Shown here piece after piece: positions 34,060 to 55,799 of a stretch of DNA of 64,000 nucleotides. A program made the position numbers and the translations under genes. Positions within the stretch are counted from its first letter, which is position 1. Every line of letters begins with the position of its first letter. This stretch comes from a virus: IMG/VR virus record IMGVR_UViG_3300037247_001044, positions 6,831-70,830 of that record. One strand, given 5' to 3'. The notes beneath the pieces were generated by a model. That model had not been told where the DNA came from, ran no database searches, and was given only the letters and a program-made list of their open reading frames with translations.

Positions 34060-36273
34060 TTACACGCCGACCGAAAGCACCGACGCGCGATACTCTGACA
34101 TGGTCACGCCGAAATCGTGGTAGCCACGTGACTGAATGCCGAGCGTATTGAAGTCGGCGTCCGTCGTCTCGATCGTCGGAGACTGCACGCCATTCAAAAA
34201 GCACATTACGGCCGATGCCAAAATTGCCGGATTGGCCAACAGGAACCACTGCGTGATCGAGTAGCCGGTATAGGCGCTGTTACTCACTTCCGGAACGATT
34301 ACCGGCTTGAATCGATTGAAGTGAATGTTATTGACCAGCGTCGTGCCTGAGGCAGTCGAGTCCCGCACTTCCATCGATGTGAAGAGCTTCCGGTTCGTCG
34401 CCTCCAGGTCGGAGCCCGAGAGCAAGAGTGCAGGCTCCAATCCGAGTAGGTTTCCGTCAGGTCCGGACGCATCACGGAAGAGCTTGACTGCTTTGTTGAG
34501 GCCAACTTCTCCGAGTGCGGTGGTGGCCCCAGCCTGACGGTTCCCACGACCCGAGGTCCAGAACGTACCGGCGTCGACAGCAGCCAGCCAAGCGGTCCAG
34601 AACACCTTGTTGAGCTTGACTGCCGCTCCCATACCGAGTCGGTTGCGCAGATCGTTGAACGCACCGAGATCGTCGTTAATAATATCAGTCCTAGTTAGCG
34701 CCAGCATTTTTGCGTACGTATCCGCTTTGATGCTGTAGCTCTCCTGACTGACCGTTCCGTGCTCGATTTCTCCGCCCGGCCCAACCTCTTCGTATTCAAG
34801 GTCAGCGTTCATGCGGTACAACGTGACTGCCTTGAAGTCCGAAACCGATCGCACCTCGGCAACCTGCCGCCACGATTGTGGCAGAAGATTGAAGCCGTCC
34901 AGTAGCAGCTTATTGCCGGAGGTCGTCAGCATCGTGGTGATGGTATGCGTACTGAACGCGGCCTGAATCACCTCGCGGAGGTTGTCATTTCCGATCCGCT
35001 GCCGGCCGCTGTAGCCGTTCTGCGCAGCGAAGGTTAGCAGCAGTTCCTGGATACCGAGGCCACGGTATTTGTCGGCCGCTTCCAGTACTTCCGGCTTGAA
35101 GTGTTTTTCCGGCTCGACCAGCCCGGCCGATAGGCAAAAGGCCGCTTCGATCGCCGGCATCGACACATCTTGGCTACTGGAGTGGATGCCCGGACCCTTG
35201 GGACGTTCTGCAACCATGAGGTCGGCCTTGAATTGTGCGGCGGCCACGATGTATTCCGCCCCCAACCGAGGCGCAGCCCATTTGTCTTTCAGCGCCGTGG
35301 CCATCGCTTCGAGGCCGCCCTTGATGGCGGCGTCATAGAGTTTGTCGAAGTCGTCCTCGGGAACCCTTGTGCGGTAATCAGCGGCCGTTGCCTTGATCGC
35401 CGTCTCATGCTCGGCGTGCGCAAGCTGAACTGCATTGAGGTCGAACTTGGGGACCTCGACAAGAGGCGGTTTATCGGCCGCGTCGATCTTCTTTTGATCA
35501 CCAGACTCAGCAGCTTCCAATTTCGCGAGAACTGCCTTCGCTTCGATAGCTTCGACCTCCGCATCGTACTTCGCCTGAAGATGCTGGAGTTGATCTTCTC
35601 GCAGTTCGGCGACCTCAAACCCCAATGCCTCAATCCACTTGTCAAAGTCCATGTCGGTCTCCTTGTATTGTGCGGCAGACGCCGCTACTTTCGCCGTCGC
35701 TTTGCGATCGGCGCCAATTGCTACGAAACTTGTTTCCCCCAACGTCGACTTACGCGCGACGTATAAGGGGCCGGTGAACGTCTTGCCGTTGACCTTGGTG
35801 GCCACGCCTTCGCCGACGAATTCGAGCTTGTCGGGACGCGCGCCAACTGAAGCTTTCCACGGGAACCCATTCCCGGCGGCGGCTTGCACTTCGGCCGCAT
35901 CGGGACCCGCCCCAGAAACGACCCCAGCGAGCTTGAGGGACGAGTCGCCGATCGTGACCTCGTCCGCATGGCCAACCACGCGAGAGGGTTCGTGGTCGCG
36001 AAGAATAGGTATGGGAGCTTTTGCCTTGAGGCCAGAGAGGTCGATGATGACTGGCGGCCCGTAGTTGTTCACCTGCATGGGGCCGCCGGTGTAGGCGGTC
36101 ATGCTGAACCGTTTGGGCTTCGACTCGCCGTCCGAATCAGCGGCTTGAATCCACTCTACGCTAACGGCCTCCATTAGGATGGGGCCTTGTACAGCCGCCG
36201 CTCGAATCATCGCACGCTGCGATTGATGATATCGGTGGCGTTCCTTGCGCAGTTGTTTTCGTTTCGTCGTCAT
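34060..36273 (-). CDS. fused prohead protease / major capsid protein (Mu gpT-like C-terminus)
   Basis: AYTGG..PILRDH..WKASVG..ETSFVAIGAD (protease); VSDFK..TYAKMLALTRTDIINDDLGAF..DFG (capsid). Confidence 0.9.
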   Translation of the reverse strand: MTTKRKQLRKERHRYHQSQRAMIRAAAVQGPILMEAVSVEWIQAADSDGESKPKRFSMTAYTGGPMQVNNYGPPVIIDLSGLKAKAPIPILRDHEPSRVVGHADEVTIGDSSLKLAGVVSGAGPDAAEVQAAAGNGFPWKASVGARPDKLEFVGEGVATKVNGKTFTGPLYVARKSTLGETSFVAIGADRKATAKVAASAAQYKETDMDFDKWIEALGFEVAELREDQLQHLQAKYDAEVEAIEAKAVLAKLEAAESGDQKKIDAADKPPLVEVPKFDLNAVQLAHAEHETAIKATAADYRTRVPEDDFDKLYDAAIKGGLEAMATALKDKWAAPRLGAEYIVAAAQFKADLMVAERPKGPGIHSSSQDVSMPAIEAAFCLSAGLVEPEKHFKPEVLEAADKYRGLGIQELLLTFAAQNGYSGRQRIGNDNLREVIQAAFSTHTITTMLTTSGNKLLLDGFNLLPQSWRQVAEVRSVSDFKAVTLYRMNADLEYEEVGPGGEIEHGTVSQESYSIKADTYAKMLALTRTDIINDDLGAFNDLRNRLGMGAAVKLNKVFWTAWLAAVDAGTFWTSGRGNRQAGATTALGEVGLNKAVKLFRDASGPDGNLLGLEPALLLSGSDLEATNRKLFTSMEVRDSTASGTTLVNNIHFNRFKPVIVPEVSNSAYTGYSITQWFLLANPAILASAVMCFLNGVQSPTIETTDADFNTLGIQSRGYHDFGVTMSEYRASVLSVGV

Positions 36274-36286
36274 CGTCAAGTACCAA

Positions 36287-36320
36287 TAAAAAAACGGGGG
36301 CACGATCTCTCGCGTCCCCG
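36287..36320 (-). terminator. intrinsic terminator-like hairpin just upstream of the capsid gene
   Basis: CGGGGACGCG-AGAGAT-CGTGCCCCCG followed by a T7 run on minus strand. Confidence 0.55.
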
Positions 36321-36649: not shown

Positions 36650-38161
36650 TCATACGCGAGCACTCCTGTTTCCGTTGCGGCCAGCAGTCGCCAGCCGATT
36701 CCTGCCTTGTGTTGGCGGTGTTGGTAGTGGAGGCGGTTCGGCGGGCGCAGATGCGCCGCTACCAAAGTGAGCCTCGAATAAAGCGGCCCTCATCTCGTCG
36801 GGTGTGATGCCATAGTCCTCAGCCATGCGGGGCAATTCGTCCTCAAAATCCAGACCGCCTGCCGCGAAGACTCGCCGGAGAACAGCAACGCCTGTCGACA
36901 GATTGGTCTTGTTGGCATTGGCGTGTTTGACCTCGTCGATGACCGGCTTCTCGGGCCAGTCCCAACCGTGATTCGGTGCCGGATCGGCCGGCACACGCCA
37001 ACCAAACCGGAGAACAGCCTCGGCGAACCACACCTCGAAGAGCGGATCGAGCACGTCCTCTTCAATATCCTGTTGCTCAACATCGACCGAAACAAAATAG
37101 GTCAAATGATCGAGCTTGCCGCCGGAGAACGAATAGCCGCTGGAGTCGGCCCTTGCGATGTTGTTCGGCATGTTGAGCGGCCGCGCCTGCTCGCCTGCTT
37201 GCTCGCGAATGAATTCTGTGTAGTTTGAAGACGGTTGTTCCGGCTTCGGCTGCCATCCGTCGTAGCCAGCCGGGAAGGCCGTCATCATCCCTTTCTCCAT
37301 CGGATACGTGGAGAAGGGAAGAGCGATGTTGGGTTCGATGCTGGGATCAGCCTGAGTTTTCAGAAAGATCGAAAAGTTAGCGATATTCTCGGCACCTACG
37401 ATAACTGCCTCGCGGTACCGCCTGCCATTCGCGTAGCAGTTAAGCGACGGGGCGACCTCAGAAACGCCGCGATGCTGACCGGCTCGGTCTTCGCGGAAAA
37501 GATGAAGCATGAATCGGGCGGGCACCCGTTCCACTTCTTGCCCCAGCCCGCTCCACTGACTGCCCGGATGCTGCTTGAGCACGTCGTAGAAAAGCACGTT
37601 GCCAAATTCGTCAAACTCGATGCCGTCAATCTTGTTCGGCTCATTGGTCCCAAGGTACGGCGTCGTCACCTGTTCGCATTCGATCGGTTTCAAGCCGAGC
37701 TTGACGCGGTGCCGCATCCTGGGATTCTGCGTAATGATGATGAACGGGTCGCCGTCTGAGACCTTTGCTTTGATGGTGGTGCGAAGCTTCTTTGGCAGTT
37801 TGACTTCCTTTGCCCAGCTCTTCCACGCGGCCTCAACCATCGAATTGAATCCGGGGCTTCCGGTTTGCATTCGCAACTTGGGGCCCCGGCCAACCACATA
37901 ATTTGCCTGGGTGAGCTGGATGCCCTTGCCTAGACCGTTGTTGGCGAATTCGTATCGGGCCCGCTGTGAGATCCGTTGGCGGACGGTCTTGGAGTTGGCG
38001 GAGTCGGCGTCAAGAGCATCAGCGGCAAGCCAGTGCCGGGTGTTCATGCCGGCAAGATCCGCGGCATCGTAGCTGCCACGGATCGGTCGGGGCGTGTCCA
38101 TGTCGACCGTCACCGGCTGGTGGCGAGAGAACGCGCGGCGGATTGCGGCAATCATGCCCAT
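36650..38161 (-). CDS. portal protein, lambda family
   Basis: YDAA, RAR...NN, GIEFDEFG, RAGQHRGVS, DSSGYSFSGG. Confidence 0.93.
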   Translation of the reverse strand: MGMIAAIRRAFSRHQPVTVDMDTPRPIRGSYDAADLAGMNTRHWLAADALDADSANSKTVRQRISQRARYEFANNGLGKGIQLTQANYVVGRGPKLRMQTGSPGFNSMVEAAWKSWAKEVKLPKKLRTTIKAKVSDGDPFIIITQNPRMRHRVKLGLKPIECEQVTTPYLGTNEPNKIDGIEFDEFGNVLFYDVLKQHPGSQWSGLGQEVERVPARFMLHLFREDRAGQHRGVSEVAPSLNCYANGRRYREAVIVGAENIANFSIFLKTQADPSIEPNIALPFSTYPMEKGMMTAFPAGYDGWQPKPEQPSSNYTEFIREQAGEQARPLNMPNNIARADSSGYSFSGGKLDHLTYFVSVDVEQQDIEEDVLDPLFEVWFAEAVLRFGWRVPADPAPNHGWDWPEKPVIDEVKHANANKTNLSTGVAVLRRVFAAGGLDFEDELPRMAEDYGITPDEMRAALFEAHFGSGASAPAEPPPLPTPPTQGRNRLATAGRNGNRSARV

Positions 38162-38364
38162 CAGCCGGCCCCCGGGGCTTTGAGCCTCACGGTCCGGAGA
38201 CCGAAGTGATTCTTTGAGGCAGCGGTCTGGGCCGATTCGTGGCGTTGGACTGCGAGCAACTGGTCAAGGTCGTGAGACTCAACCCGCCCCTTGTCCGTGC
38301 TTACGACCTGCGGGTTGAGTGCGGCTCGTTCGAGCGCGTCGGCTATGGTTGTCGGCGTTGCCAT
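38161..38364 (-). CDS. gpW-like head completion protein
   Basis: 67 aa immediately before a lambda-type portal. Confidence 0.6.
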   Translation of the reverse strand: MATPTTIADALERAALNPQVVSTDKGRVESHDLDQLLAVQRHESAQTAASKNHFGLRTVRLKAPGAG

Positions 38365-38491
38365 GAATGCATGGTAACGCGGCCAAGAGACGCATCAAGG
38401 GAAGAGTGGGCAAGTTGCTATATATGGGAGTTTTGGCCAGATACGGCCAGATTTCTGGGGCAGTTGCCGGATGATAGAGGCCAGCGCATGA

Positions 38492-38524
38492 GTAAGCCCG
38501 GGCACTTGCGGCACCCGGGCTTAC
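38492..38524 (-). terminator. hairpin closing the repeat array
   Basis: Perfect 11-bp inverted repeat GTAAGCCCGGG / CCCGGGCTTAC; no U-tract, so role is inferred. Confidence 0.5.
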
Positions 38525-38534
38525 CTTGAAAGTA

Positions 38535-39070
38535 GGGCACTGTAGCAATCGGTCTCAGTGCGAAGTTCGCCTTGGGCTATGCGGCAATGCCGTTGTCGGT
38601 TTCACGTAAGCCGTCGCCTTGTCTAGGGCAACTCTTGACTCGGTTTCATCTTGCCTGTCGCCGTGGGTTGGGGCAACTCATTCTTCGGTTTCAAACTTAT
38701 CCTCGCCTTGGATTGGGGCGGTGGAGCTTTCGGTTTCATTTGACCCGTCGCCTTGGGATTGGGCTCGGGGGTAATCGGTTTCAATTTTCCGCTCGCCTTG
38801 GGTTAAGGGGCATCGCGTCAATCGGTTTCACGTTCTGGCTCGCCTTGGGCTGGGGCACCGCTGACTTCGGTTTCACAAGAGCAGTCGCCTTGGGTTGAGG
38901 CAATGCTCGGTTCGGTTTCACGAAGAGTATCGCCTTGGATCGGGACACGGGTGCTCTCGGTTTCACATGTCGACTCGCCTTGGATTTTGGCATTATTGCA
39001 GTCGGTTTCACGGGGTCGGTCGCCTTGGGTTGGGGGCAAGCGGCGACTCGGTTTCACTTGGCCTTTCGCC
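38535..39070 (-). ncRNA. TIGR-like dual-spacer array, distal segment (12 units)
   Basis: Minus-strand unit TGCCCCAACCCAAGGCGA-N9-TGAAACCGA-N9; loop repeats at 38549, 38596, 38640, 38685, 38730, 38775, 38822, 38867, 38912, 38957, 39002, 39048. Confidence 0.85.
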
Positions 39071-39078
39071 ATATCTCA

Positions 39079-40155
39079 TCAACCACCGGTCCACGGTTCC
39101 GGTTCAATCCCATCGACTTGAAACACCCATTCCGTCCACAACTCACGCAAGAGCCTTTTCCCCATCAACAGCATCCCGTGGAGGTGAGGCCGCATCACCA
39201 TCACACCACGGCCTGAGCATTTTTTGCACCCGTCTCCGCTCTTGGCCGTGCCGGTGCCTTTGCACGTTGTACAGTCCGGCGTCCACTCCGGGTCTTTCCG
39301 GGCAATCGCTTCGGCTTTCTTCGTAGCATACCGTCGGGCATACGGGCCAGCGTAAATTGCCCCATGCGTCTCAGTTGCCTTTCGGGCCCCGTTGCCTTTC
39401 AGGAGCGATTCGGAAATCACGAACATCACCGACCGGCGCCGTGGACAGTAACCCAGTTCCTCCCACTCGGCCGCAGACAATCCGCCGTTGTGCTTCTTCC
39501 GGCTTCGCCACGTCGAGGGCATGAACGTCTTGCCCTTCGACTCAAACGGGGCGCAGCCCATCCGGCGCCACAGCTTCCCGGGGTTGTCGTAGTTCGATAG
39601 GTCGCCCACTTCGCCGATGATGATGGCCAGCGATAGCCAGCCGAATCCACGCTGATCGGTTAGTGCCATCCACTTGGCTACGGGGAGTTGTTTGGACAGC
39701 TTTCCCATTTCCCGTTCGTAGGCTTTTTCCGTGGCGTGAAAGCCTTCGATCGAGACGGAGCAGGCTTGAATCAGGGGGGCCAGGGCATCTCTGGGCCCGG
39801 TTTCAATGGCGCTCTCGCCCTGGACCTCCCTGATAAGTTTCTTCGCATCGCCAAACCACCTGGCACGCTCGTCTTCCTCCATGCCGGCGTGATACCCGCT
39901 CGCCGTGGCCACCGTGGCAGTCAAACGGTTGTCGATCATGATCCGCGACTTTTGCGTGGTGACCCGCTGGCGTTGGAGTTCACGGATATCGGCAACAAGA
40001 GAAGGCACGGGGGTAGTCGGTTTCACCGGATCATTCGCCTTCTTTTTCGGCACTTCCGTTTTCGGTTTCAGACAGGGGATCGCCTTGTCTTTTGGCACGG
40101 CATCCCTCGGTTTCAGTGGGGGTTTCGCCATGGGTGTTTCAGTTACGGTTGCCAT
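39079..40155 (-). CDS. TasA-like Nop/IS110-related RNA-binding protein without nuclease domain, with CxxCxGxG Zn-finger insertion
   Basis: IRELQRQR..QKSRIMIDNRL coiled coil; RGFGWLSLAIIIGEVGDLSNYDNPGKLWRRMGCAP (IS110/Nop helix-hairpin-helix); no DEDD RuvC or HNH; embedded in array; GAAAGG SD before MATVTE. Confidence 0.8.
   Translation of the reverse strand: MATVTETPMAKPPLKPRDAVPKDKAIPCLKPKTEVPKKKANDPVKPTTPVPSLVADIRELQRQRVTTQKSRIMIDNRLTATVATASGYHAGMEEDERARWFGDAKKLIREVQGESAIETGPRDALAPLIQACSVSIEGFHATEKAYEREMGKLSKQLPVAKWMALTDQRGFGWLSLAIIIGEVGDLSNYDNPGKLWRRMGCAPFESKGKTFMPSTWRSRKKHNGGLSAAEWEELGYCPRRRSVMFVISESLLKGNGARKATETHGAIYAGPYARRYATKKAEAIARKDPEWTPDCTTCKGTGTAKSGDGCKKCSGRGVMVMRPHLHGMLLMGKRLLRELWTEWVFQVDGIEPEPWTGG
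40004..40129 (-). repeat. three array units inside the Tas-like CDS
   Basis: TCGGTTTCA at 40017, 40062, 40107 with exact 9-nt spacers and 45-bp period. Confidence 0.85.
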
Positions 40156-40180
40156 GATGGGCCTTTCGTGGGGTTGAGGG

Positions 40181-40668
40181 GGGACAGTAGGTCTCTCGGT
40201 TTCACGGGGGGGATCGCCCTGGGTTGGGGGCACAACGGTTTTCGGTTTCAGCGTATTGATCGCCTTGTGTTAGGGCAGGCTGGGGTTCGGTTTCACCCAC
40301 GAAATCGCCTTGGTTGGGGGCACCGGAACTTTCGGTTTCGTTCTTGTTGTCGCCTTGAGCAGGGGCATTACTATGGTCGGTTTCATTGCTCCAATCGCCA
40401 TGGTTGAAGGCAATGTCTCATTCGGTTTCAAGTCCGTCCTCGCCTTGGATTGGGGCATCAGCTCGATCGGTTTCACGGTGGCTCTCGCCTTGGGTCGGGC
40501 ACGTGTCTAATCGGTTTCACGTCCGTCCTCGCCTTGGGATGGGGCATTGACCGGGTCGGTTTCACTATTCATCTCGCCTTTGGTTAGGGCACGGGGGTTT
40601 TCGGTTTCATTTCCTTGGTCGCCTTGGATTGGGGCAAAGGCTATCTCGGTTTCACCCACTCAATCGCC
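40181..40668 (-). ncRNA. TIGR-like dual-spacer array, middle segment (11 units)
   Basis: Loop repeats at 40196, 40242, 40287, 40332, 40377, 40422, 40467, 40511, 40556, 40601, 40646. Confidence 0.85.
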
Positions 40669-40670
40669 CA

Positions 40671-41168
40671 CTATTTCTTCACCTTCTGAAACACCTTCGT
40701 CAACTTCGCCAGCGTAAACTTCTGCCGAACGGTCGCCTCGCCCTTTACCGTCTTCGCAAGCTCACGACATAGTCGCGTGTTGAACTCGTGACCGGACGCC
40801 CGCTCGGATTCCGCGTCGGCCGTGGCCACCAGTTCGTCGCCCGTGAGCATCCCGAGAGTTTTGCCCGCGATCAAGTAGGCCATCACGCCTTGAGCAATTC
40901 GGCCAGACGCTTCCCCGGCCGTAACCTTTGCCGGTCCACCGTAATCGCCATGGGCGGTTCGCATCTCTACGTTGATATGATGCCGGGTGTCGTGGATCAG
41001 CTTTGCGATTGCCCGGCGGATCAGCTCGTCTTTCAATGTATCGAACCACTGGACCTTGTTTGCCTTCTTCAGTACGGCCTCGGTCGCGTCCTCGATACTG
41101 TCGGGGTGCTTGTCAACGGCCGCGTCTACTAGCTTTTGCAAACGTTCCATTGCTTTCGGTGATTCCAT
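40671..41168 (-). CDS. array-embedded hypothetical protein (165 aa, helical)
   Basis: AAGGAG SD; flanked on both sides by array units. Confidence 0.75.
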   Translation of the reverse strand: MESPKAMERLQKLVDAAVDKHPDSIEDATEAVLKKANKVQWFDTLKDELIRRAIAKLIHDTRHHINVEMRTAHGDYGGPAKVTAGEASGRIAQGVMAYLIAGKTLGMLTGDELVATADAESERASGHEFNTRLCRELAKTVKGEATVRQKFTLAKLTKVFQKVKK

Positions 41169-41174
41169 TGAGTT

Positions 41175-41589
41175 CTCCTTGGGTCAGGGGGCACTTCCAT
41201 TTTCGGTTTCACCCCCGAAATCGCCTTGGGTTAGGGCACCTAGTCATTCGGTTTCACACTGGGCTTCGCCTTGGATAGGGGCAACCTGACAATCGGTTTC
41301 ACGCTTGCGTTCGCCTTGGGTTGGGGCACCGGGCTTGTCGGTTTCATATTCGCACTCGCCTAGAGTTAAGGCAATGTACCACTCGGTTTCACTCTCTTGC
41401 TCGCCTTTGGGTTGGGGCAACGCATCACTCGGTTTCATGATGAGCATCGCCTTGAGTGGGTGGCACTTTCTTTTTCGGTTTCAGCTCGGTGATCGCCTTG
41501 GGCTAGGGCACACCCTACCTCGGTTTCAGCGGGTATTTCGCCTTGATTTATGCGGCAGTGGGACACTCGGTTTCACAGCTATATTCGCC
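41175..41589 (-). ncRNA. TIGR-like dual-spacer array, promoter-proximal segment (9 units)
   Basis: Loop repeats at about 41203, 41248, 41293, 41338, 41383, 41429, 41475, 41520, 41567. Confidence 0.85.
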
Positions 41590-41693
41590 GCGCAAGCCTT
41601 CCCTTCGGTTTCCACGAAAGGCCGCCCATAAAAGGGCAAGAATTTCCCGAAGGGAAGGGGTATTGTTCATAGAGCCAATCGTGGATAACTGCC

Positions 41694-41722
41694 ACCTTAC
41701 CACCGGTATTACCGATTGTCAA
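41694..41722 (-). promoter_or_regulatory. sigma70 promoter for the array operon
   Basis: TTGACA-17 bp-TAAGGT with extended -10 TG, about 100 bp upstream of the first unit. Confidence 0.7.
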
Positions 41723-41765
41723 CCCCGAAATTCAAAGTGGCCCATTTCCTACCGAATTCCGATGG

Positions 41766-42017
41766 TCATGTCTTGCTGAGGGGTTTGCCGGCAATAGCTT
41801 CACGTCTTTCACGAATGCACTGCTTTGGGATATACATGATTCCGCTAAGCTGCCCGGTATGCTCGTCCCGGGATGATGCAATACACAACACATCGTCGGT
41901 TTCTTGTGCCAAATGGCCGACGGTCGTGATCTTGGCGACTCGCATTTCCAAGCTGTCTTTCTCGGTCCACCCATCATCGGATCGTGAATCCAGCCAATCA
42001 ACTATTTCAAGTGACAT
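41766..42017 (-). CDS. conserved phage hypothetical protein
   Basis: VDWLDS...GW...TVGHL...IPKQCI pattern. Confidence 0.65.
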   Translation of the reverse strand: MSLEIVDWLDSRSDDGWTEKDSLEMRVAKITTVGHLAQETDDVLCIASSRDEHTGQLSGIMYIPKQCIRERREAIAGKPLSKT

Positions 42018-42018
42018 T

Positions 42019-42225
42019 TTATTTCTTCCTCGGAATTTCCTCCGTCCGAAGCAACGACTGCCCGCAGTGCCGACATACCCGGCGGCGATGACGGTTCCCG
42101 CTGGAAACTCGGTAGGTGGAGGTCACCCGCCAATCGCGACAGCCGCAACGCGGGCAAGCCCACGGATCAGGATTCGCTTCGTCCGCCATCTCCTGCAAGG
42201 ATTTGGGGGGCTTCGCGTCTGTCAT
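42019..42225 (-). CDS. Zn-ribbon protein (NrdR/Ogr-like)
   Basis: CPRCG...V.ST....RRRVCRHCG...TEE. Confidence 0.65.
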   Translation of the reverse strand: MTDAKPPKSLQEMADEANPDPWACPRCGCRDWRVTSTYRVSSGNRHRRRVCRHCGQSLLRTEEIPRKK

Positions 42226-42235
42226 CTTTTGGCAC

Positions 42236-42490
42236 TTAGTCCTTATCGGACGGAATGATTCGACCGAGTTGCAGCCACCGTCGAAAGTGAAAGTAAATCC
42301 CCTGATTATCGTCGACCTGCTCCCCCCGAACGTACACTTTTCCATCGTCATCGAACCGGATCATTTCGCGCCCATCTGCCAGCAGGAACACAATGCTCCC
42401 CGATGGCTCGCCGTTGCCTGGGGAGAACGTCACGTTTCCACCAGCGGGAATGGTCGTCACGTTTCCACCATTGCCATTAGCCTCTGACAT
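42236..42490 (-). CDS. hypothetical protein
   Basis: AAGGAG SD, MSEANG start. Confidence 0.5.
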   Translation of the reverse strand: MSEANGNGGNVTTIPAGGNVTFSPGNGEPSGSIVFLLADGREMIRFDDDGKVYVRGEQVDDNQGIYFHFRRWLQLGRIIPSDKD

Positions 42491-42773: not shown

Positions 42774-44864
42774 TTATCGCTTGGCCATTTCCGCAAGACT
42801 CATGGGCTTCTTGGTTGCTTTTTCTGCCGATGGAATTGACGATAGCCGCGACAACGACGCGCCAACACGCCCTAACGCCAAGGCATCCAAGTAGTGGTTT
42901 GGACCATTCGGTGGCAGGAATTTCGCCTTCGCCGGGTCCCACTGTTCGCTGATGACATGAGCCCCAAGTTCCCGCTCTTCCTCCAGCGAACTTCGCAACT
43001 GGCGGCCATCGGGACCAGTCCGCGGAGCGTGTAGCCCGAGGCTGCCGGGCGTACCGAAGTCGGCCTTGAACGCTTCCTGTACGCGGGTCTTGTAAACGTC
43101 AGGGTTGACGTCGCACAGCGGCGACCGCGTCCTGCGGTCGATGTGACACTCGTCGAACAGACGGATGCCGATGTGCGGCAACGGCCGACGGTATTTTCCG
43201 AACCCTTTGCACGGCAAGCAGCGTCCAAAACCAACCTCGGAAGCAAACACCGTCACCGGCTGTACCGACCAGCCTTCGTTTTTCCATCCACTATCAAGCA
43301 GCGTCCAATCGGGAAACCAGGCCGATGCTTCCACATCCAGGTCTTCCCGCCATGGCTTGTGGGTCTGAATCCATTGCCACCAATCGCGGAGCCCTTCCAG
43401 GACAGCATTCTCGCAAGCCTCGGGGCGTTGGCCCGCCGTTGCGAATCGCCAGAAATGGTACTCGACAATCGAACCGACGCAGTGTTCGTCCCACGCGACC
43501 GCCACCCAATGCGCCCCAAGCTTTTTGATATCGACGCCGACTGTCAACCGGACCGTCTCCGGTGGCACGACTCGGTAATCAAAGCCACTCCGGGAATCGC
43601 GAATCTGTTCTGACGTCAGATCGAGCAAGCCGAGTTCGTCAGGCGGGTCGTTGTCGAACTCCGTCGCCGTGTTGGCTGGGCCAATCCTCGCAACCCAGCC
43701 GTAATAATGCTCCAACGCCGACACCTCGACCGTTCCACCCTCCGGCCGGATTCGGTGGTCGTAACGGTGCTGATTCGCGACCTCGCCGCCTTCGTCCATT
43801 TCGTCGCGACGAGCCAGGTAGAACTCGTGTGCTATTCGCGGTGTCGGGGCCTCGCGCACATCGCCTTGCTCGGCCACCCACCCCTGCTTGCACAAGTTGA
43901 CGAATTCAGCCCACGCCGTCTGGTTGGTTGGCGGCTTCAACAGGAACCGCATCCGCCGTCCACGGAAAGATGGGTACTTGTCCCGATCGGTCAGTTGATA
44001 CGCAACAGAACACCGGCTCGGGCAAGTACAGAGCACAAGCCGCGATACGGGATTGTGCTGCGAGCCAAGAGCCGCGATGCCGCGATTGATCTTCCGTAGT
44101 AGTTTGGCAGCTTGAACAGGATTATGAATCGTCTCTTCCGTGTCGGGATCGTCAATAATCACCGCTCTCGGTCGACGGTTTTTGATCCGCAGTCCCCGCA
44201 GAGCAGAATCAAGACCTTGTGCGATCACGATAGCACCAGCCGAGGGCGAACCCGGTACGTTTGGAAATACAAGCCGATCGCCCGTCCAATGGAAACTGCT
44301 CGGCGCCAACTCGTATCGCTCGCCGTTGCCGAACCGCTCGCCCTCGACCACTTGGGTCTTCGCCCGCTGGACGGTGCCCTCCAGGGCCCGAACCGGATCG
44401 CAGACCTCCGGGTAATACTGGAAGATTTCGTCATTCTCCCCGATGGCCATCCTGATCGTGTCTAGGATGTCGGCCGCGTTCTTCGCCGTCGCCCCGAGGA
44501 TGACCCATAGGTCTTGCCCGCCACCTTGCAGGATCGCCTTGAGCGTCAGGGCAATTGCTAGGGACGTCTTTCCTTCGCCCCTCGATGCCGCCGTCGCCTG
44601 ATCGCCGCCCTCCGACAACACTCCAGAAAAGTCGGCCACCATCTGCCGCTGCTGAGGCTCAAGGGGATAGTACGTGTCTGGACTGAATGCCGGCCAGTAG
44701 GACTCGATCCAGAGTTCATCATCGGCCTCGCGTCGGAGTCGTTCGGCCAGCTCTTCCGGTGTCAGCGAGCGGACGGTAACCAATCGGCTCTCAAGTCGCT
44801 GTGTGCGTTTCCGAAGTGCGTCGTAGTCGCGTTCTGACATGGCGCCAGTCGGCTCCTTGGCCAT
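42774..44864 (-). CDS. terminase large subunit (GpA-like nuclease domain)
   Basis: Walker A ASRGEGKT, Walker B VIIDDP, TVGVDI, LLDSG, PCKG, NHYLDA. Confidence 0.9.
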   Translation of the reverse strand: MAKEPTGAMSERDYDALRKRTQRLESRLVTVRSLTPEELAERLRREADDELWIESYWPAFSPDTYYPLEPQQRQMVADFSGVLSEGGDQATAASRGEGKTSLAIALTLKAILQGGGQDLWVILGATAKNAADILDTIRMAIGENDEIFQYYPEVCDPVRALEGTVQRAKTQVVEGERFGNGERYELAPSSFHWTGDRLVFPNVPGSPSAGAIVIAQGLDSALRGLRIKNRRPRAVIIDDPDTEETIHNPVQAAKLLRKINRGIAALGSQHNPVSRLVLCTCPSRCSVAYQLTDRDKYPSFRGRRMRFLLKPPTNQTAWAEFVNLCKQGWVAEQGDVREAPTPRIAHEFYLARRDEMDEGGEVANQHRYDHRIRPEGGTVEVSALEHYYGWVARIGPANTATEFDNDPPDELGLLDLTSEQIRDSRSGFDYRVVPPETVRLTVGVDIKKLGAHWVAVAWDEHCVGSIVEYHFWRFATAGQRPEACENAVLEGLRDWWQWIQTHKPWREDLDVEASAWFPDWTLLDSGWKNEGWSVQPVTVFASEVGFGRCLPCKGFGKYRRPLPHIGIRLFDECHIDRRTRSPLCDVNPDVYKTRVQEAFKADFGTPGSLGLHAPRTGPDGRQLRSSLEEERELGAHVISEQWDPAKAKFLPPNGPNHYLDALALGRVGASLSRLSSIPSAEKATKKPMSLAEMAKR

Positions 44865-45315
44865 TCGTGGCTCTTGTGATCGGCGCAACAAAAAACAGCA
44901 CGCCCAATGGTTCCAGCACTGGACTGCTGTTCTTGTTGCGCCTCCGTGTCCACTCGCTGGCCGGCAAGTGGTCGGTGGCCCCGATAAATTGTTAGCTGTT
45001 CGCCTTGAGGATAATCGGCGCCCGTTCCTTCACCCGCCGAAGACTCTTGATCCGGTCTCTGATTTTCACGGCTCGGCTGCTAGGATTAGGGGCACTCGAC
45101 GGGGGGGCTATTGTACTTCCAGTAAACCCTTTCCGCCCACGGTTGCATTGATAGCTGATTCTTAGTCCTCATCTCAGTGCCTCGTATTGCGCGCCACAAG
45201 ATCCACATGGCCTCGCGTATAGTCGGAGGCTGGCACCAGAACGCCCCGTACCCAAAGCCTTGCTCTTCGAGCTGTACGGCGATACCGTGGGCCTGCGTCA
45301 GATCGAGCTTCAGCT

Positions 45316-54725: not shown

Positions 54726-55799
54726 CTATCTCCCTATTAAGGCGCTTTGTCTGTCGTTGAATAGTGATCGGTCGCCGCGAAGTAGGCGACGAGAGTGATA
54801 CGGGAATGCCCCACCCGCCGCTACAAACTCATGAGCCCCCATGTCCCACGGATCATTGCTGGGGTCGGTGTCACGGTTCAATCCGTCAATATCGACTTCA
54901 ACGCCGCTTGGCGTCGTACCTAAATCGGTACCAGCGTCGATTGCATCGGCACCGGATTTGAGGTGGAGGTTGACGGGAGAGGTGGAGACGAATTGGTCGG
55001 CAGATGCTTTATTTATGAGAGACCCTGTACCCGAAGCTGTAGCATCAGAGGAGAGATTATGATCCATCGTCGAGTTAGACGGCGAGTCAACCTTAAAGTC
55101 TTCTGCCCCAGTCCCTGTCGTATCAACTACTAAATCATTCTGAACAATAACCGTAGCATCATCCGCATGGGAAATACCATGTACTTGCGAGTTGCCGTCT
55201 GAGTGAACGTCAAAAACTGTGTTGTTTAGAATTTTGACGTTGCCACCGGTTCGCTCAATAGCATTGATCTCAGCACTACCTGTAAAAGTGTTTGTGATGT
55301 CGTACAGTATGTTGTTGCTGATATTATTGTTGGACGAACTACTCCCAAACACTTCTGCTAAAGAACGAGGCCCACCCCTAAATACAGACATACCATGCAA
55401 CAACATATTCTGTATCGAAAATGTGACATCCCCATCAAAGATTCTAATTGGCTCGTCGCCATCGGTCCCACTCGCTGCCGAAAGGTGCAGTTCTAACCAC
55501 TCCAGGTTAATGGTTATCGCTGAGGTATAACCACCAACTTGAATGAACTTTGTTGAACTAATATTGCGTGCCCCAGACCCTGCCGTCCCATCGTGCCGCT
55601 CACCGGCGGCTACCGTCTGTACAATTGAATTGGCATCAAAGTCGATTGTCCACGATTCGTCGAACACCGAATCGTTGTACGCACTGCCCGTGCAATCATC
55701 GTTGCCGAGACCGTCCCCGCCGCCGTCATCCGCTTCCCACAGCGTATGGGTCAAGTAGTCTCGGGTATCGGTCCCGATTGTCTTGTTTATTATGGCCAA
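54726..55799 (-). CDS. parallel beta-helix (pectin lyase-like) virion protein
   Basis: NNILY/NNTVF repeats, LHLKSGADAIDAG...DIDG...WDMGAHEF. Confidence 0.7.
   Translation of the reverse strand: MAIINKTIGTDTRDYLTHTLWEADDGGGDGLGNDDCTGSAYNDSVFDESWTIDFDANSIVQTVAAGERHDGTAGSGARNISSTKFIQVGGYTSAITINLEWLELHLSAASGTDGDEPIRIFDGDVTFSIQNMLLHGMSVFRGGPRSLAEVFGSSSSNNNISNNILYDITNTFTGSAEINAIERTGGNVKILNNTVFDVHSDGNSQVHGISHADDATVIVQNDLVVDTTGTGAEDFKVDSPSNSTMDHNLSSDATASGTGSLINKASADQFVSTSPVNLHLKSGADAIDAGTDLGTTPSGVEVDIDGLNRDTDPSNDPWDMGAHEFVAAGGAFPYHSRRLLRGDRSLFNDRQSALIGR

Follow-up and report, generated by a model that had tools for sequence, protein, structure and literature searches.

What kind of system is encoded by the repeat-rich cassette that lies at about 41.7 to 38.5 kb of a phage sequence in the IMG/VR collection? 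The virus record, IMGVR_UViG_3300037247_001044, is a single linear record of 70,830 nt, and we have analysed a 64-kb stretch that makes up most of it (the window; all coordinates refer to it). Its cassette, placed between the terminase and portal genes, holds short tandem units around and inside two open reading frames (ORFs). We consider with a probability of about 0.87 that the locus is a phage-borne TIGR-TasA system, since its array anatomy, the Tas fold of one of its two proteins and the lack of a nuclease make it a member of the published TIGR-TasA kind. By analogy with published members, this system is probably an RNA-guided repressor.

TIGR-Tas systems bind DNA under the guidance of RNA, are distinct from CRISPR and were first described in 2025 (Faure et al. 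2025, PMC12045711). They form a compact DNA-targeting family free of a protospacer adjacent motif (PAM-free) that is under development as a tool, and their prevalence in phages has also been published. According to the article texts, a TIGR unit consists of two 9-nt spacers, a 9-nt loop element and box-like CGA/UG frames (PMC12045711; bioRxiv 10.64898/2026.09.09.750476). The text of Faure et al. 2025 (PMC12045711) further describes that the dual spacers act on opposite DNA strands, that TasA has no nuclease, and that stem-loop and 'intermediate' arrays exist. As reported in the text of Xu et al. 2026 (bioRxiv 10.64898/2026.09.09.750476), TasA ribonucleoproteins (RNPs) bind matching DNA and repress reporters.

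In the order of the minus strand, the cassette consists of the following features.

41694..41722, minus strand: candidate promoter letters TTGACA, 17 nt, TAAGGT, read from the sequence
41174..41627, minus strand: sub-array 1, units 1-10 (unit 1 degenerate)
40671..41168, minus strand: 165-aa partner gene, an ORF with a conserved place just upstream of tas in one clade of Tas proteins
40183..40668, minus strand: sub-array 2, units 11-21, beginning directly past the stop codon of the 165-aa gene
40004..40129, minus strand: sub-array 3, units 22-24, in frame within the 5' end of tasA
39079..40155, minus strand: tasA, encoding a 358-aa nuclease-less Tas protein, assigned by fold and sequence
38536..39070, minus strand: sub-array 4, units 25-36, beginning 9 nt past the tasA stop and ending in a truncated edge element
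38491..38525, minus strand: terminal G+C-rich hairpin with a 15-bp stem at the end of the cassette, found by folding

We have counted 36 units on the minus strand at 38,491-41,627, each of the form GGCGA-N9-TGAAACCGA-N9-TGCC. Read together with its edge element, a unit is TGCC-N8-11-GGCGA, 9 variable nt, TGAAACCGA and 9 more variable nt. The 32-nt frame CGA-N9-TGAAACCGA-N9-TG, which has 14 fixed bases, occurs in 31 exact copies in the window, all of them on the minus strand at 38,585-41,587, while 0.01 copies are expected by chance and none of 100 shuffled sequences reaches 31. The spacer framing CGA-N9-TG of the preliminary description, which had been made from the sequence letters of this DNA, is therefore sound. 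When the complete contig of 70,830 nt was scanned and as many as 2 of the 14 fixed bases were allowed to differ, all 36 units of the region were recovered (31 exact, 5 with one mismatch). One lone frame with 2 mismatches lies outside the cassette, at window position 54,854 on the minus strand, and is probably a chance match. The units form four blocks of 10 + 11 + 3 + 12. That description had given 35 units (9 + 11 + 3 + 12); the array is real, but the degenerate leader-proximal unit 1, with its loop at 41,613 (GGAAACCGA), had been omitted.

The edge elements between adjacent units are also regular. Among the 26 that we have measured, 18 are 18 nt long, four 19 nt, two 20 nt and two 17 nt, in agreement with the 17-20-nt edge repeat claimed before. 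TGCC and GGCGA are invariant among the 18-nt elements, and the middle, with the consensus C/T-C/T-A-A-C/T-C-C-A-A, is conserved in 9-17 of 18, so it should be regarded as a degenerate repeat and not as a free loop; the variable loop proposed earlier for this position is thus not supported. The unit period is 44-47 nt, and periods of 44, 46 and 47 nt all occur in the window. Some edge elements are degenerate, as is the first unit. Near-identical 9-nt spacers recur within the array, with 3 A-A pairs (1.15 in shuffles) and 6 B-B pairs (1.1 in shuffles), which hints at unit duplication or recombination as the route of array growth. Recurring spacers A are those of units 10/19 and 14/16, and recurring spacers B those of units 10/23 and 24/31; unit 10 thus has its spacer A in common with unit 19 and its spacer B in common with unit 23.

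The closing hairpin that had been claimed is real: its 15-bp stem has a folding energy of -34.1 kcal/mol (z -2.89), and an equally good fold was found in 1 of 200 shuffles. It has no U-tract, however, and the terminator scan made no call there. Searching Rfam over 38,200-42,000 at E up to 1, we have found one chance microRNA match and nothing else.

What protein accompanies the array? The tasA ORF encodes 358 aa from an ATG at 40,155, which is preceded by GAAAGG, or 384 aa if a GTG further upstream is used; judging from the sequence, translation may also begin at another GTG, near residue 47. An AlphaFold2 model, built with 120 homologues in the alignment, has a mean predicted local distance difference test score (pLDDT) of 90.3 and a predicted TM-score (pTM) of 0.83. 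In this model, residues 1-49 are disordered (pLDDT 46-68), residues 50-154 form a long helical hairpin or coiled coil, and a Nop-type helical domain follows at about 160-348 with a beta-rich insertion at about 286-320. The insertion region holds a CxxCxGxG-type zinc ribbon at about residues 294-317, and the CxxC...CxxC pattern is found in 55 of the 120 homologues. The in-gene units 22-24 encode about residues 9-51, that is, the disordered stretch; in the text of Xu et al. 2026 (bioRxiv 10.64898/2026.09.09.750476), intragenic tigRNAs likewise keep the frame and fall in disordered regions.

The preliminary description had called the protein a Nop/IS110-like Tas without nuclease and had proposed an AlphaFold-Foldseek comparison of 39079-40155. 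In that comparison with the PDB, TasH and TasR chains take all of the first ten places (E 7e-5 to 9e-4), and IS621/ISCro4, Nop5 and Prp31 come afterwards. VIA-align, run against 48,161 chains, gives the same picture: TaTasR 9mty has Z 15.8 (194 aligned residues, root-mean-square deviation 3.1), TasH 21kl has Z 15.1 (210 aligned) and ISCro4 has Z 12.1, and the next row is a coiled coil at the background level of Z 8.6. At the sequence level, the NCBIfam model NF052498 (TIGR_Tas_endo) matches at E 5.2e-17 over positions 2-214 of 215. These three results agree with the earlier assignment. The structural alignments begin at residue 50-52 of our protein, opposite residue 111 of TaTasR or residue 66 of TasH, i.e., after the nuclease domains of the latter two, and the protein is therefore a TasA in the published nomenclature. 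Scans for nuclease families found none on it at E up to 1 (Pfam) or 0.1 (NCBIfam), and, as the model shows, an HNH or RuvC nuclease domain is absent.

The same searches raise the idea that the locus is a mobile element encoding an RNA-guided transposase of the IS110 type, with repeats resembling bridge RNAs. Indeed, the NCBIfam IS110 model matches at E 5.8e-8, PHROG 4285 ('transposase') at E 1.8e-6 and, among otherwise weak Pfam hits (DnaJ_CXXCXGXG at E 1.2e-3), Transposase_20 at E 0.19; the Z value of ISCro4 given above points in the same direction. The IS110 model, however, is matched at positions 117-263 of 343 only. The N-terminal DEDD/RuvC-like domain is absent, since the disordered residues 1-49 pass directly into the coiled coil with which the fold begins; Tas chains rank above IS110 chains in both fold searches; and the locus has 36 tandem guides where an IS110 element has one bridge RNA. 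We thus regard a transposase as extremely improbable, and keep to the assignment as TasA.

The TasA family is large: a word-indexed search returned 146 matches, and an exhaustive search 2,118 representatives at E <=1e-3. Some homologues carry the precomputed Pfam tag PF27659. PADLOC returned no match for either TasA or the 165-aa protein.

Do the units act as RNA? We have addressed this question with 111 related loci (80 viral, 4 from metagenomes and 27 from genomes), which we refer to by L numbers where they need to be told apart. Many of them have TG[A/T/C]AACCGA loop elements and the same CGA/UG frames, with variable spacing. Pairing was measured as the number of contiguous pairs outward from the C(CGA):G(UG) pair. 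In the relatives, the two arms of the same unit pair over 5-9 bp on average, compared with 1.5-4 for arms of the same edge element and 2-4 for arms of other units, and the stem-loop relatives have periods of 48 to 114 nt. The window, L081, L082 and L018 behave differently, with 3-4 pairs in all three arm comparisons and a fixed 44-47-nt period; in the window, the mean same-unit stem is 3.4 pairs, compared with 3.3 for other-unit arms. The closing stem of the window and its two closest relatives is reduced to three fixed pairs inside the 17-20-nt edge repeat, and the period of these three arrays is 44-45 nt. The separately placed L018 (L018:1252-2440) of the same Tas clade has a regular array as well, with a 47-nt period, a 20-nt edge repeat and a 4-bp closing helix, so homogenised edges may have arisen more than once.

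For the covariation analysis, 112 units belonging to 10 stem-loop loci were aligned without gaps. Paired cells make up 79.2% (53.9% in shuffles), and doubly changed cells number 401 (151 in shuffles). The covariation score is 0.630, compared with 0.164 in shuffles, and was reached in 0 of 500 shuffles; in this score the C:G and G:C box pairs are fixed by the pattern with which units were selected. The structure was defined from the same sequences that were scored, a point addressed by controls with slid partners, which reach at most 0.176. This result argues that guides of the family are under RNA-level selection for a helix that closes the unit. The window keeps the three innermost pairs, which are also the most conserved ones in the relatives (GC at 88 and 66 of 112). 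The GCC/GGC mini-stem of the preliminary description thus corresponds to a real pairing, but, because the relatives pair their arms within a unit and with heavy covariation, it is better read as a closing helix between the two ends of one unit.

Repeats of this kind could instead work as DNA, like iterons or centromere-like protein-binding sites, or could encode repetitive peptides, without any guide RNA. A period of 45 nt equals 15 codons, several ORFs of 50-108 aa run through the arrays, and fixed motifs could in principle be bound by a protein. The peptide version does not go with the periods of 44, 46 and 47 nt in the window, nor with L082, whose period is strictly 44 nt and hence not a multiple of 3. 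The covariation described above speaks against the DNA version, since arms that flank the spacer pairs have changed together for Watson-Crick pairing, which means selection on a folded single strand; moreover, all 36 units lie on the tas strand, both flanking and inside 39079-40155. The probability that we leave to these explanations is close to negligible, and we continue to read the array as guide RNAs of a TIGR-TasA system.

Is the system then intact, or is it a decaying TIGR remnant without function? Three relatives, L081-L083, whose Tas proteins are 64-81% identical, have retained the edge repeat (17-18 nt) and the loop repeat but have no spacer in common with the window, as is typical of a guide array whose spacers turn over. 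A remnant would fit with the degenerate first unit and the several degenerate edge elements, and with the lack of a contig target for the spacer pairs (see below). On the other hand, both ORFs are intact, every fixed base is kept in 31 of the 36 units, the near-invariant residues of the family are retained in the window TasA, and relatives share the layout with different spacers. Decay is thus unlikely in our estimation, and a maintained TIGR-TasA system is the better description.

We have also looked for targets of the 36 spacer pairs in the 70.8-kb contig, in both orders (spacer A followed by the reverse complement of spacer B, A + rcB, and the converse, rcB + A). With up to 3 mismatches and 38,480-41,700 masked, the A + rcB order gives 6 matches, where shuffles give 2.1-2.3; this number is reached by 2 of 100 mononucleotide shuffles and 5 of 100 re-pairings, so it is marginal and we conclude nothing from it. 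The rcB + A order gives 2 matches at the same threshold, compared with about 2.2. At up to 2 mismatches, 2 matches are seen over the contig in both orders together, where about 0.3 are expected. The A + rcB sequence of unit 25 (39039-39065), the nearest unit downstream of the tasA stop codon, agrees with the coding strand of tasA at 39,232-39,249 in 16 of 18 positions; each half has one mismatch, and the site lies within the zinc-ribbon codons. This self-match could reflect autoregulation or chance.

Several observations weigh against the identification as a TIGR-TasA system and should be considered together. First, the letters of the promoter that had been claimed are present, but its candidate -10 element (TAAGGT) matches in 3 of 6 positions and a promoter scan of 38,200-42,100 called no site. 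Second, the NF052498 match scores 62.5 bits, under the model cut-off of 100. A profile of the 120 homologues found nothing below E 0.45 among PDB sequences, and a single-sequence PDB search brought up 9mty only at E 0.68; given such weak sequence searches, a fold search was needed. Third, the closing pairs of the window never vary, so covariation is seen in the relatives only and is not demonstrable in the window itself. Fourth, CTT within 20 nt after spacer B is present at 0.16 of 32 window units, compared with a background of 0.13; CUU is enriched in several relatives (for L008, 0.82 vs 0.17), and not in L081 or L082. Fifth, ten residues follow the last helix (H321-348) of TasA and, by inspection of the sequence, contain no Y or H, so that the Y/H processing loop described for dual-repeat Tas proteins in the text of Xu et al. 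2026 (bioRxiv 10.64898/2026.09.09.750476) appears to be absent. Sixth, none of the 36 spacer pairs has a match at 0-1 mismatch in the contig in either order. Finally, guide expression, guide processing and unit length are predictions from the DNA sequence; the one sequencing run listed for this DNA is a DNA run labelled marine sediment metagenome, which may be its source, and no RNA run is listed.

Does TasA act alone? The 165-aa gene upstream of it is conserved. Its protein has 25 homologues down to 43% identity, several of which share contigs with close Tas homologues. By tblastn, the partner is present in 25 of the 111 loci (L002 and L085, which are one contig, are both counted). It always lies on the tas strand and precedes tas by 57-702 nt, a distance in which units are found. 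For the distribution of the partner, we have used a quick maximum-likelihood Tas tree: from the window plus the 111 loci, 106 sequences had the required 220 residues or more, and 96 distinct rows among them were used. Of the partner-positive rows, 24 of 25, counting the window, belong to a single clade of 30 Tas rows, with a support of 100 in the Shimodaira-Hasegawa-like approximate likelihood ratio test (SH-aLRT), and this clustering was matched by 0 of 500 label shuffles. In six rows of the clade, no partner was found by tblastn; in two of these, L008 and L018, the upstream flank is only about 1.5 kb long.

The protein itself resembles nothing that we could recognise. Its AlphaFold2 model is helical with moderate confidence (pLDDT 74.6, low at 76-93), without a Foldseek match below E 1.4 and without a VIA-align row above Z 5.5. 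Pfam scans of 25 and of 31 members returned nothing consistent, and the ESM Atlas gave no usable match. R62, G106 and G126 are the only invariant residues among 31 aligned members. When the profile of the 31 members was compared with the PDB, residues 66-107 weakly matched the GW/SH3-like repeats of Listeria Lmo1076 (5jqc, E 0.0045); these residues are the lowest-confidence part of the model.

Considering this conservation, we have weighed the idea that the locus is a two-protein TIGR system, going beyond passive repression, in which the 165-aa partner is integral through processing of pre-tigRNA, as an effector recruited by TasA, or in spacer renewal. The fixed place of the partner directly upstream of tas in 25 of 111 loci and its concentration in one clade favour it. 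In addition, the last edge element of sub-array 1 reads ...AAGGAGA and serves as the predicted ribosome-binding site of the 165-aa gene, so that the signal of the partner gene is made from an edge element; and the lack of a Y/H tail in TasA and of a CUU mark in the array would leave room for another processing factor. The partner, however, has no recognisable fold, nuclease motif or family, only three residues are invariant across its members, and six rows of the clade are without it. Published TasA also binds and represses in E. coli without a partner, according to the text of Xu et al. 2026. Taken together, an integral role of the partner in this system is possible, with the odds on the other side. 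Equally tentative is the wider proposal that the 165-aa family is the obligatory second protein of one large TasA clade, supplying a processing, DNA effector or spacer-renewal function.

If this proposal were true, 'single-protein' TIGR-TasA systems would in part be two-component, and the repeat-type arrays of that clade would be a secondary return to this form, reached as the stems of stem-loop arrays became homogenised. Natural roles, the maturation of stem-loop guides and spacer renewal are questions left by Faure et al. 2025 and Xu et al. 2026, as their texts put them; for the missing processing or effector step, the partner gene offers the lead that could most readily be tested. In the TIGR-Tas texts that we searched, we have found no description of such a partner; the supplements (Faure Table S1, fig. 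S14; Xu TIGRSafari) may already include it, as well as the array form or the contig itself.

Based on the above analyses, we can propose how the TIGR-TasA system of the window would work. A single minus-strand transcript, reaching from about 41.7 kb to the hairpin at 38.5 kb, would include the four sub-arrays, the partner gene and tasA. The precursor would be cut within the 17-20-nt edge elements to give guides of about 45 nt, with the predicted form (linker)GGCGA-spacerA-UGAAACCGA-spacerB-UGCC(linker). In a TasA dimer, the Nop domain may hold the CGA/UG frames as box C/D-like nucleotides, and the three-pair helix would join the ends of the guide, with the C of CGA paired to the G of UG, followed by GG:CC. 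The two 9-nt spacers would then pair with opposite strands of an 18-bp DNA target, and the complex, without a nuclease domain, would presumably bind the DNA and block transcription or replication.

As for the genomic setting, the two genes that enclose the cassette have been called by a PHROG scan, which bears out the position between terminase and portal stated in the preliminary description.

42774-44891: large terminase
36650-38161: portal

The minus strand holds nearly all long ORFs of the window, the GC content is 53-60% throughout, and no tRNAs were found in the phage DNA. At 34060-36303 on the minus strand lies a gene whose 747-aa product joins a prohead protease to a major capsid protein (PHROG 4523, E 1.4e-60). 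Between the terminase and the cassette, at 42019-42351 on the minus strand, there is a 110-aa ORF with two CxxC pairs (CPRCGC...CRHCG), whose PHROG matches are weak and belong to families without assigned function. A search of GenBank phages with the capsid-protease protein returned distant phages only, with hosts of many kinds. When GenBank phages were searched with TasA by tblastn, there was a single weak match, MW960032.1 25086-25472 (Rhizobium phage RHph_X2_25), at E 1e-6 and 31% identity over residues 122-256, in a protein annotated as hypothetical.

How does this locus compare with the systems already known? According to the texts of the respective papers, the stem-loop TasA systems include PlTasA from a Peromyscus leucopus gut contig, BlTasA of Bifidobacterium longum and MbTasA of Minisyncoccota (PMC12045711; bioRxiv 10.64898/2026.09.09.750476; Guan et al. 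2026, bioRxiv 10.64898/2026.08.11.744272). Like them, the window has a nuclease-less protein with a coiled coil and a Nop domain, two 9-nt spacers set in box-like nucleotides and a 9-nt loop element. The sub-arrays are located upstream, downstream and inside tas, with the in-frame units in a disordered region, and the C-terminal tail is short and without the Y/H dyad. Moreover, the window Tas nests in the 30-row clade of the quick tree (SH-aLRT 100), and most of the other members of this clade have stems that covary. Unlike them, it has a closing stem cut to three fixed pairs without a unit-specific extension (3.4 vs 3.3), a 17-20-nt inter-spacer repeat with a regular 44-47-nt period, no CUU enrichment at the stem base, a zinc ribbon inserted in the Nop domain and a 165-aa gene in the operon.

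The dual-repeat systems, represented in Faure et al. 2025 by FpTasA (Flavonifractor plautii), TaTasR (PDB 9mty) and SpTasH (PDB 9w03/21kl), share with the window the regular tandem units, the conserved edge and loop repeats, the short pairing between unit ends, an array end made of a truncated edge repeat and a hairpin, and the best structural matches. The window differs from them in its units of about 45 nt with edges of 17-20 nt, where the published units are 36 nt and the repeats 8-12 nt; the variant with 45-nt units that had been claimed is thus real. It also differs in that the Y/H loop is absent after the last helix and, from TasR and TasH, in that its protein has no nuclease domain.

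TasParB-TasA operons are described in the Methods of Faure et al. 2025. As in these, the window has a second gene operonised with tasA, and units upstream, downstream and between the genes. However, its partner shows no ParB signal: at E up to 10, PF02195 (ParB_N) has no match on the contig (the control was found in 11 of 14 genomes), none of the 31 partner members matched ParB in Pfam at E up to 1, and no ParB chain appeared in either fold search. Because of the lack of a ParB_N match, we have not equated the 165-aa gene with the published TasParB. With the IS110/IS621 recombinases and the archaeal box C/D Nop5 RNPs, the system shares the coiled coil, the Nop fold and a two-part guide logic. 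It differs from them by having neither a DEDD recombinase domain nor a fibrillarin or L7Ae partner, and by arraying its guides.

The cassette itself is an ordinary member of the published kind, and the partner gene is its least ordinary part. What the locus adds is a natural cassette of 36 guides with clear limits, located in a phage genome that CheckV estimates to be 94% complete, a partner gene spread across a Tas clade, and an array form that bridges two published architectures, with the regularity of the dual-repeat arrays, a protein of the stem-loop Tas clade and only the innermost pairs of the stem. Overall, it fails the strict definitions of both published array classes and takes an intermediate position, with a protein of the stem-loop clade and an array that resembles the dual-repeat systems but has a longer edge repeat.

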